This document shows positions 11-2,495 of a DNA stretch of 64,000 nt, piece after piece. The translations under genes were made by a program, and so were the position numbers. Below the pieces are notes generated by a model, which saw only the letters and a program-made list of their open reading frames with translations, did no database searches and was not told the DNA's origin. Location of the stretch: the IMG/VR virus record IMGVR_UViG_3300046777_002716, positions 37,898 through 101,897 of that record. One strand, 5' to 3'. How positions within the stretch are numbered: the stretch's first letter is position 1; the number at the start of each line of letters is the position of its first letter. Source of the stretch: a virus.

Positions 11-475
11 TCAATAGTTTTCTGAAATTCCCGAAACGATTTCATAAACTTTCTTTTTCTGATGTTCTGGAATAATCTTATTTAGTTTTATGATAAGCAT
101 TCCATTTTCAAATTTTACATCAGAAATTTTTACATCATCAGAAAGAGTTCTACTCCAAGTAAATGCTCTTTTTGCAAGTCCTTTATGCAAATACTCATCA
201 GTGTCGGAGGACTCAACTTTTTTAGATTCTACAAACAACTTATTGTTTTCAGTAGAAACTTCGATATCATCTTTCTTATATCCAGCAAGAGCAAACTCCA
301 GTCTGAACTCCGTGCTGCTTTCCTTTACATAGTTATATGGTGGATAATTTGGAGAAGATTCATTTGCTGTTGCAAATCTCTGAATCCACTCATCCATTCC
401 AATTCCCCATCTTGCAGAATCATTTAGTAGTTTATCAACATCAATAGCGTATTTTACAGTTGTTGTATGAAACAT
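11..475 (-). CDS. hsp20: Small heat shock protein (Hsp20/IbpA family)
   Basis: NYPPYN, LEFALAG, YLHKGLAKRAF and FENGML motifs of the alpha-crystallin domain; follows regA as in T4-like cyanophages; AAGGAG SD. Confidence 0.96.
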   Translation of the reverse strand: MFHTTTVKYAIDVDKLLNDSARWGIGMDEWIQRFATANESSPNYPPYNYVKESSTEFRLEFALAGYKKDDIEVSTENNKLFVESKKVESSDTDEYLHKGLAKRAFTWSRTLSDDVKISDVKFENGMLIIKLNKIIPEHQKKKVYEIVSGISENY

Positions 476-565
476 GGTTTTTCTCCTTAAGTAAGCGAGT
501 TTGTAACTTAGGACCCCTAAGGCATCCGTAGCGTATGGGGGGTGCTAGCACCTCTCTCCCATCAA
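476..565 (-). promoter_or_regulatory. Structured 5' UTR of hsp20, ROSE-like RNA thermometer candidate
   Basis: Three possible hairpins; the last is CUC-G-CUU/ACUU/AAG-GAG, pairing UCGCU against the SD with a bulged G. Confidence 0.6.
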
Positions 566-585
566 TATTATATATCGAAGAATAC

Positions 586-610
586 AAAAAAGGGGAGTGT
601 TGAACTCCCC
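586..610 (-). terminator. Rho-independent terminator after regA
   Basis: GGGGAGT-TCAAC-ACTCCCC followed by T6 on the minus strand. Confidence 0.85.
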
Positions 611-1057: not shown

Positions 1058-1440
1058 TTTTTTCCTCCAGTCTCAAATTTTGATTTAATAAAATTAAGTT
1101 GTTCTTTAGTAAGAATCCTCAAAGCGTTTTTTGCCTTTTCATTATTGTAACCATAATATCGTTTGACATATTCTAAGTCTTTGATTTCATCTTTACCGAT
1201 CCAAGGAGAAAATCCCCTATTGATCCTCAGACTATTTATAAAAAAATCATATTGCATCTTTTTAGGAAGAAAATGATATTGATTTATTTCATTAACAAAC
1301 ATCAACCTGTCAATATATCCAGATAGGCACTTATTAATAATATATGGTGAATAATCCTTTTCTGCAGAAGGATCATTATCCATTAAATTTTCTTTTGTTT
1401 TGTTGATTGAATTTAACCAATCTTTTAACTCATAAGTCAT
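1054..1440 (-). CDS. gp62: Clamp loader small subunit gp62
   Basis: LKDWLNSIN, YIINKCLS, YYGYNNEKAK motifs; immediately upstream of regA. Confidence 0.95.
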   Translation of the reverse strand: MTYELKDWLNSINKTKENLMDNDPSAEKDYSPYIINKCLSGYIDRLMFVNEINQYHFLPKKMQYDFFINSLRINRGFSPWIGKDEIKDLEYVKRYYGYNNEKAKNALRILTKEQLNFIKSKFETGGKK

Positions 1441-2495
1441 CTGATAATCTCCAAATCATTCCCTTGTTTCCAAAGTTCAAGTTCAGTTCTTAAAGTACCT
1501 TCTGCCTTAAGTTTATCGTACCTCTTAGTAGACTTTTTTTTCCACCATGCAATAACCTCTTCTGGTTCATAACCAAATTTGGAAAGATAATACCTTTTCT
1601 TCTCAGTCAAAGATTTGGCATGTTCTATGCATAGATTAAATTCATTTAATTTCGGATGATTTTTTAAAGAGTTTCTAATAATGGAAATCATCTTAGTTTG
1701 AATCTTCAATTTTTTAGATGACTTATCAGCAGATATAAGTCTTTCTCCACCATTGGCATTATTATTAAACCACCAAAACATTTCCCTAAAATAATCATCA
1801 TGAAAAAGAGGAAGAAAATTACTTTCAGTGTCCCCTATGTGTCGGATAAAAGGTTTAAGACCATCATACATGGATACCCCCTTTGTTGTACCGTATAATG
1901 AAGTTGTTTCAAAGTATTGAAGATCAGTTCCATACTTTCCATCAAATTGTCTTTTGAGTTCATTAGAAGATGCCAGTAGTGCAAGAAGTTTTCCACCAAG
2001 ATAATTATATCCAAATGGTTGAACTGGGACAATGTTAAATCCCATAACAAAATTTTTATTAATTGTCGATAATTCAAGCACCTCACCAAAATAATCGTTC
2101 CTTGGTTTAGAGTTGATTGTTGGTGATCCAAATCTAATCACCCCGACAATTTTATTAGTATTATTCTCTACTACAATCCATTTTATTGTCCTACCAGGAA
2201 TTGCTTCTTCAATAGGATTAGATGCAGTAGAGTTTAATATTTCAGAATAAAGTTCTTGATTATACTTACTCTTTGGTTTAGAACTAGTATCAACCTCATG
2301 TATGGAGAAGTCCATATCCATTGGATGAATATTAAAATCCGAAAAAATTTCATCTTCAGGTCCAAACAATTTACCTAAAGAGTTATCTAACCTACTCTTT
2401 TTTACAAATCTAAGATAATCATCAATACGATTAAATTTAGAATAGTATTGTATAAACTGATCTGCTGCCCAAATTGCATCTTCAATAGATAACAT
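1437..2495 (-). CDS. DUF4338 / Druantia DruA-like protein
   Basis: PGR..GVIRFGSP..R, VPVQPFGYNYLGGKLLALL and FETTSLYG..SMYDGL match the recalled DruA motif series (GR..LGSP..RD; PPYN.LLGGKL.A.L; TTSLYG..SQYNRL). Confidence 0.75.
   Translation of the reverse strand: MLSIEDAIWAADQFIQYYSKFNRIDDYLRFVKKSRLDNSLGKLFGPEDEIFSDFNIHPMDMDFSIHEVDTSSKPKSKYNQELYSEILNSTASNPIEEAIPGRTIKWIVVENNTNKIVGVIRFGSPTINSKPRNDYFGEVLELSTINKNFVMGFNIVPVQPFGYNYLGGKLLALLASSNELKRQFDGKYGTDLQYFETTSLYGTTKGVSMYDGLKPFIRHIGDTESNFLPLFHDDYFREMFWWFNNNANGGERLISADKSSKKLKIQTKMISIIRNSLKNHPKLNEFNLCIEHAKSLTEKKRYYLSKFGYEPEEVIAWWKKKSTKRYDKLKAEGTLRTELELWKQGNDLEIIR

Follow-up and report, generated by a model that had tools for sequence, protein, structure and literature searches.

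The hsp20 gene of a T4-like cyanophage raises the question of whether a virus governs its own small heat-shock protein through the kind of RNA leader that is already known on bacterial ibpA-type genes. The original prediction, made from the DNA letters, proposed a ROSE-like RNA thermometer of three hairpins in the hsp20 5' UTR. The DNA analysed here (the window, 64,000 nucleotides at its full length) is a section of a 102-kb viral contig that is estimated to be 48% complete, and the linked sequencing runs carry the label of freshwater or lake-water metagenome. Judged by gene order and nearest relatives, the phage is a T4-like cyanophage (Kyanoviridae); the nearest isolates are DSL-LC02, P-TIM68 and S-SRM01. 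The genes that frame the leader are the following.

1440-1054, minus strand: gp62 clamp-loader subunit
1057-617, minus strand: regA, a translational repressor gene and the upstream neighbour of hsp20, with the intergenic region between the two
11-475, minus strand: hsp20, 154 aa, IbpA-like small heat-shock protein, AUG at 475-473, cyanophage core gene T4-GC 170

The hsp20 product matched Pfam HSP20 (4.7e-14), PHROG 432 'Hsp20' (2e-49) and the NCBIfam families IbpB (2e-24) and IbpA (1e-21), the latter two under their equivalog cut-offs. BLASTP aligned the product to E. coli IbpA at 29% identity (E = 8e-23), and the alignment takes in the YPPYN and G-x-A-x-R-x-F blocks. The small heat-shock gene call of the original prediction is thus borne out, and by these matches the window hsp20 encodes an IbpA-type protein. 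The gene belongs to the core set of T4-like cyanophages (PMC3037559). It follows regA immediately in the window, DSL-LC02, S-CAM7, S-B05, S-PM2, P-TIM68, S-SSM7, S-SM2 and ACG-2014f, and lies away from regA in P-SSM4, S-SM1, S-RIM8 and S-RIM14. The leader moves together with hsp20, independent of regA. An odd passenger sits elsewhere in this replication module, between the clamp-loader genes: a 352-aa ORF (1437-2495, minus strand) that matches Pfam DruA, the Druantia anti-phage system protein (E = 3.8e-13).

The interval between regA and the hsp20 start codon was resolved into the following parts.

585-610, minus strand: intrinsic terminator of the regA side, from the terminator scan, with a GC-rich stem-loop of 7 bp (610-592) and then a T-run
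567-572, minus strand: TATAAT, a sigma-70-type -10 box, perfect hexamer, 4 nt 5' of hairpin 0
535-562, minus strand: hairpin 0, from the MFE fold, with AUGGG/CCCAU as outer stem, the purine bulge AGAGA on the 5' side, GGUG/CACC as inner stem and CUAG as loop
528-534, minus strand: linker ACGCUAC, from hairpin 0 to hairpin I
511-527, minus strand: hairpin I, GGAU(G)CC-UUAG-GGGUCC, which contains a U-G pair and, three positions below the tetraloop, the bulged G523
500-510, minus strand: spacer from hairpin I to hairpin II, 11 nt, A/U-rich, single-stranded
483-499, minus strand: hairpin II, the proposed sensor, anti-SD CUC(G)CUU (499-493) paired with SD AAGGAG (488-483), G496 bulged, loop ACUU
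473-482, minus strand: unpaired 7-nt spacer AAAAACC, then the AUG start

The terminator is the sole terminator-like site that the scan found in the first 1500 bases. It sets hsp20 apart as a transcription unit of its own, and relatives show the same order of terminator and then promoter. The terminator and the -10 box on its 5' side mark the hairpin stretch as a leader and not as coding sequence. A two-hexamer promoter scan gave no match at the leader, where no -35 element is recognisable for the TATAAT box, and a heat-shock (sigma-32) promoter was found neither here nor at any other leader inspected. A T4 late promoter was considered for the window leader and rejected, as its -10 region has two mismatches to the late box TATAAATA. 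Across relatives, a TATAAT-like hexamer (at most one mismatch) stands just 5' of the first hairpin in 65 of 69 leaders, and 26 of the 69, mainly from marine isolates, come within one mismatch of TATAAATA. The window promoter thus looks like a sigma-70 -10 box, not one of heat-shock type. In many relatives with two hairpins, and in L013, L018, L063, L080 and others, the -10 hexamer is followed directly by the lower stem of hairpin I, which covaries. Were transcription to start at the normal distance of 6-8 nt, part of this selected stem would be lost; in these phages, therefore, transcription may start unusually close to the hexamer, or longer transcripts that begin upstream may matter.

The minimum free energy fold of the leader yields exactly hairpins 0, I and II, and all three lie on the minus strand where they had been predicted. 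Two details of the prediction needed correction. The first hairpin had been drawn with the loop UA, and because a loop of 2 nt cannot form, its loop must be the 4-nt CUAG; the second hairpin was rightly placed, and the bulged G523 has to be added to it. The third hairpin, CUC(G)CUU-ACUU-AAGGAG with a bulged G and the SD 7 nt from the AUG, is as described, the bulge being G496. Within it, UCGCU at 498-494 pairs with AGGA of the SD AAGGAG. Hairpin II was also considered as a terminator and rejected for lack of a following U-run. Hairpin I is probably a stable folding or stabilising hairpin.

ROSE elements are defined by their place in the 5' UTR of small heat-shock genes, by two to four hairpins and by a 3' hairpin in which the SD is paired with U(U/C)GCU containing a bulged G (PMC3669281, PMC11182007). 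According to the NMR work of Chowdhury 2006, as cited in PMC11182007, a network of non-canonical pairs surrounds this G. Each of these defining features had been invoked for the window leader (the hairpin number, the U(U/C)GCU:SD pairing in the last hairpin and the bulged G), and each is present.

For comparison, we collected the hsp20 loci of 80 IMG/VR viral contigs (58-82% protein identity) and 18 cultured phages. All collected hsp20 leaders fold into the same architecture, and the leader was found in every Kyanoviridae isolate checked. The element predicted for one locus is thus confirmed there and proves to be general to phage hsp20, mostly in a form with two hairpins; besides the window, 21 leaders have three. 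An anchored Python parse of 73 distinct leaders showed that the bulged base of hairpin II is G in 71 of 71 parseable leaders and that hairpin I carries a bulged G in 70 of 70. The parse mis-assigned hairpin II in two of the 73 (S-SSM7, SCTP-2) and hairpin I in three (DSL-LC02, S-SSM7, Paride), in all of which the hairpins are visible by eye. The anti-SD in relatives reads CGCU after U or A, or else UGCU, and the spacer between hairpins I and II varies from 2 to 16 nt.

Hairpin II occurs in two pairing registers. Class A, to which the window belongs, has CUC(G)CUU paired to AAGGAG; class B has AGAC(G)CUU paired to GAGGUCU, 3 nt nearer the start codon. In either register the GGAG core is buried, and CGCUU with the bulged G is retained. 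Within class A hairpin II is nearly invariant, which is expected for the SD arm and is notable for the non-coding anti-SD arm. Between the classes the pairs of the lower stem are exchanged: counted from the bulge, the three positions are AU in 44 and UA in 26 of the parsed leaders, GC in 45 and CG in 25, and AU in 45 and UA in 11. Single compensations were found additionally in S-WAM2 (GUC/GAC), S-TIM66 (CCAC/GUGG) and DSL-LC02 (AGAU/AUCU). Covariation across Kyanoviridae leaders had been proposed as a check on the prediction, and the result is favourable, with compensatory changes present and pairing of the UCGCU type with the SD kept in all 71 parsed leaders.

The hairpin sequences are too divergent for a sequence aligner, and MAFFT with RNAalifold on fixed-length leaders therefore recovered fragments of the structure only. 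For this reason a hand-given structure, a covariance model and the anchored parse were used instead. The covariance model, R1, was built from 16 class A cyanophage leaders with the hand-given structure. In the 27 sequences aligned by R1, an alignment that is fitted to the model's own structure and so favours pairing, standard pairs occupy 96.5% of cells versus 79.5% in shuffles and eight pairs change on both sides; neither value was reached by any of 500 shuffles, and the model-free anchored parse agrees. Shifting the 3' partners by one column lowers pairing to 57-59% in the same alignment, where all seven pairs of hairpin I covary. R1 aligned the class B leaders by sequence and not by structure, so the cross-class pair counts given above were taken from the Python parse.

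Hairpin 0 is limited to the three-hairpin subset, which comprises 22 leaders counting the window and includes S-PM2. In these 22 its outer stem is AUGGG/CCCAU or the compensatory AUGAG/CUCAU, its 5' bulge is purine-rich and 3-5 nt long, and its inner stem of 4-5 bp varies freely in sequence with pairing kept. The 18-mer that runs from the end of hairpin 0 into hairpin I recurs unchanged in the marine phage S-PM2 and in 20 further viral contigs; a search with it returned 22 viral contigs, one of which is an unrelated match.

Infernal searches with the Rfam ROSE families had been suggested as a further check, and they support the assignment in part. In a scan of 341 nt the best Rfam match was ROSE_3 (RF02523), with all model positions 1-69 aligned (25.4 bits, E = 0.0026), a score that does not reach the gathering score of 43 bits; Rfam ROSE (RF00435) and ROSE_2 (RF01832) gave no match at E up to 10 in the same scan. 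The alignment to ROSE_3 covers the GGAUGCC...GGGUCC hairpin with its bulge and the ACUCGCU...AGGAG pairing. The hsp20 leader was likewise the top ROSE_3 match, below threshold, in three of five other whole cyanophage genomes (S-RIM14, 20.9 bits; S-SM1, 15.2 bits; P-SSM4, 13.9 bits). Rfam run at E up to 1 over 20 whole loci lost such weak ROSE_3 matches.

The reverse search led directly to a bacterial counterpart. R1, which contains cyanophage sequences only, was run against the 4.6-Mb chromosome of E. coli K-12, and its sole match at E up to 10 was the leader of ibpB (32.3 bits, E = 1.8e-4); the ibpA leader was not recovered in this search. Both E. coli leaders precede genes for proteins homologous to the phage Hsp20, and both are described as ROSE-like thermometers (Waldminghaus 2009 and Gaubig 2011, as cited in PMC6096418 and PMC3669281). 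The sensor arms of ibpB, CUC(G)CUU and AAGGAG, are identical to those of the window hairpin II, and the ibpA sensor hairpin reads CUC(G)CUG-AUUU-CAGGAG. There are also differences. The upstream hairpins of E. coli ibpA are unlike those of the phage leader, and hairpin I of ibpB has no bulged G, unlike phage hairpin I. In addition, the E. coli leaders, cited as about 96 nt long (PMC6096418), belong to a sigma-32 operon, whereas the phage leader has no sigma-32 promoter.

The two-hairpin ROSE-like type of Pseudomonas ibpA (Krajewski et al. 2013, PMC3669281), which likewise lies in the 5' UTR of an IbpA-type gene, has the same hairpin I, GGAU(G)CC...GGGUCC, with the same bulged G as the phage. 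As in the phage, its hairpin II is short, with U(U/C)GCU paired to the SD, G-C pairs flanking the core and the AUG unpaired (PMC3669281). In contrast to this type, the phage leader stands behind a TATAAT-type or phage-type promoter and not a sigma-32 promoter, the window and about 20 relatives have an additional 5' hairpin, and the host of the phage lives at 10-30 C. Because of this temperature range, the set point of the phage element, if there is one, must differ.

The known cyanobacterial elements resemble the phage leader less closely. The Anabaena 'avalong' leader (PMC4152365, PMC4477652) has a ROSE-like anti-SD with a bulged residue whose deletion abolishes induction, but this residue is U where the phage has G, and its first hairpin is long. 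The Synechocystis hsp17 type (PMC4477652) differs from the phage leader, which consists of two or three separate hairpins with the AUG unpaired. Nor is the leader a fourU element, as its anti-SD is CUCGCUU and not UUUU. On these comparisons of sequence and fold, the phage leader is nearer to the proteobacterial ibpA/ibpB type than to hsp17 or 'avalong', and by its defining features it is classed as ROSE-like, though under the Rfam score threshold.

ROSE-like leaders of ibpA-type genes were thus known already, and what is new is the viral host. Our literature search found no paper that joins cyanophages with RNA thermometers or describes such a leader in phages, in agreement with the guess that none had been described for cyanophage hsp20. 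A 2024 paper lists as phage RNA thermometers only lambda cIII, SP-beta blyA and the leader of a gut-phage sigma-70 gene (PMC11182007). These three are similar to the hsp20 leader in being phage 5' structures that gate translation by temperature, yet they belong to other structural classes (alternative structures and, for blyA and the sigma-70 leader, fourU) and to other genes; none is ROSE-like or on a chaperone gene. The hsp20 leader would bring a whole viral clade into the ROSE-like family.

Together these comparisons lead us to consider it probable that the leader exerts ROSE-like translational control, as a thermometer, on the phage's own IbpA-type gene. In the proposed mechanism, the transcript would begin beyond the regA terminator, just 3' of the TATAAT box, and its two 5' hairpins, 0 and I, would fold stably. 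Hairpin II would pair the anti-SD CUC(G)CUU with AAGGAG and so block the 30S subunit at low temperature. The bulged G496 and the short stem of 3+3 bp would make this hairpin labile, such that warming would unzip it and allow Hsp20 to be translated. Temperature sensing is a reasonable expectation from homology. In bacteria, hairpin II alone gives thermoregulation. Heat induction is lost in ROSE-like elements when the bulged residue is deleted, and induction also fails after stabilising deletions in hairpin II (PMC3669281, PMC4152365). That hairpin II opens by temperature in the infected cell is what we infer, as are the position of the transcription start and the phage's gain from the leader. 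A conserved ROSE-like leader would imply that the phage produces its chaperone conditionally, by temperature or by protein-folding stress, and the leader thereby offers a concrete, easily testable link from water temperature to the infection programme of a phage.

Folding in silico has limitations for elements of this type. With ViennaRNA the predicted unpaired probability of the window SD is 0.07 at 20 C, 0.12 at 37 C and 0.30 at 50 C, by a method that shows no opening for the E. coli ibpA thermometer, which served as control from 10 to 42 C. Because this control stays closed, nearest-neighbour folding, which had been suggested at 20-45 C as a check on the prediction, cannot judge ROSE-like elements. 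In favour of the thermometer, removal of G496 in silico locks the SD, which then stays closed throughout, in the same model that fails on ibpA. The predicted opening of the phage hairpin lies well above lake temperatures, which in this model would be weak evidence against thermosensing.

An alternative to thermosensing is suggested by the bacterial proteins themselves. IbpA of E. coli, Cedecea and Vibrio binds its own ROSE-like 5' UTR and represses translation, and in the gamma-proteobacterial protein this self-repression depends on R93 together with an aromatic residue 34 (PMC10474464). The phage leader might similarly be chiefly a feedback operator to which Hsp20 binds, repressing its own synthesis until titrated by unfolded or aggregating proteins, for instance in the late burst of capsid production. 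Its output would then follow proteotoxic load and not temperature, and it could act jointly with thermosensing. In the window protein, R103 aligns with R93 and Y44 with Y34 of E. coli IbpA, and neither residue varies among 12 diverse phage Hsp20s. Furthermore, hairpins 0 and I are conserved beyond what masking of the SD needs, and the predicted stability of hairpin II is high for a cold-water host. In contrast, the window Hsp20 has W and S where IbpA has the cationic R97 and K98, IbpA self-suppression depends on oligomers and not on dimers (PMC10474464, Discussion), and feedback alone leaves unexplained the strict conservation of the bulged G, the thermolabile feature. On balance we regard a leader that is chiefly such an operator as unlikely. 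The broader proposal, in which the leader would be mainly a folding-stress sensor and heat would come second, with Hsp20 bound to its own 5' UTR and released when the burst of phage structural proteins or damaged host photosystem proteins takes it up, is one that we hold as a tentative possibility. If it were true, the virus would run a chaperone feedback loop that was brought in with an ibpA-like gene, itself now a fixed core gene in the ocean's most abundant myoviruses.

The thermometer reading also has to be weighed against a role for the leader that is independent of temperature, in which it would act as a constitutive damper and mRNA stabiliser, keeping initiation at a fixed low level and shielding the 5' end from RNases during infection. 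Stable 5' stem-loops do stabilise transcripts, such a role has been proposed for hairpin I of Pseudomonas ibpA (PMC3669281), and the nearest-neighbour model gives little opening at 10-30 C. A damper needs no bulge, however, yet the bulged base is invariably G in the parsed hairpins II and the ROSE motif is kept through two pairing registers; moreover, bacteria have the same hairpin in a form that responds to heat (PMC3669281, PMC4152365). We therefore consider a fixed damper improbable.

Whether the conserved ACTCGCTT stretch might instead be a DNA site for a transcription factor arises from a 2024 study, which named ATTCAAACTCGCTTAAATA, 31 nt 5' of S-PM2d130 (hsp20), a putative Pho box for host PhoB (PMC10976474). 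In that study PhoB failed to bind the fragment, and hsp20 was unresponsive to low phosphate (PMC10976474). The compensatory changes between the two arms, in turn, indicate an RNA helix and not a DNA site. The Pho-box reading, rejected on the published negative gel shift (PMC10976474), is in our estimation very improbable. The published 'putative Pho box' of S-PM2d130 (S-PM2, LN828717.1) coincides with the anti-SD arm of the ROSE-like hairpin. A ROSE-like leader accounts for this upstream sequence, proposed as a Pho box, without PhoB binding (PMC10976474).

The window alone gives mixed signals on whether the fold could be fortuitous. The leader folds no better than chance, with 135 of 200 shuffles folding equally well (z = +0.42). 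A scripted scan of the window, which called a hairpin when it had a bulged G on its 5' side, covered the SD and ended 1-9 nt 5' of the start codon, returned one of 62 ORFs of at least 80 aa and two of 2281 ATGs, the second of which opens a spurious frame of 31 aa. That AT-rich intergenic DNA folds this way by chance agrees with the shuffles but not with this low background, with a structure that is conserved and covaries over more than 70 distinct leaders (40-80% protein identity) or with the reciprocal match to the E. coli ibpB leader, and by the comparative data we take this reading, whose probability is negligible, to be refuted already.

A bulged-G hairpin over the hsp20 SD is also present outside the cyanophages, in Pelagibacter phage HTVC104P, Pseudomonas phage Paride and Salicola phage SCTP-2. 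HTVC104P and Paride have a bulged-G hairpin I as well; the HTVC104P leader lies downstream of a perfect TTGACA-17-TATAAT promoter, and Paride has the canonical UUGC form. A scan of bacterial-genome contigs matched two MAG contigs, at least one of which carries the leader. This 6.4-kb contig (RFNU01000168.1, our L093), from the MAG 'bacterium isolate LLD_282' of Lake Lanier, encodes a phage-type hsp20 (57% identity) and is probably a phage contig within a bacterial bin. Its leader scores 49.7 bits with R1 and has the anti-SD UCUUGCUU.
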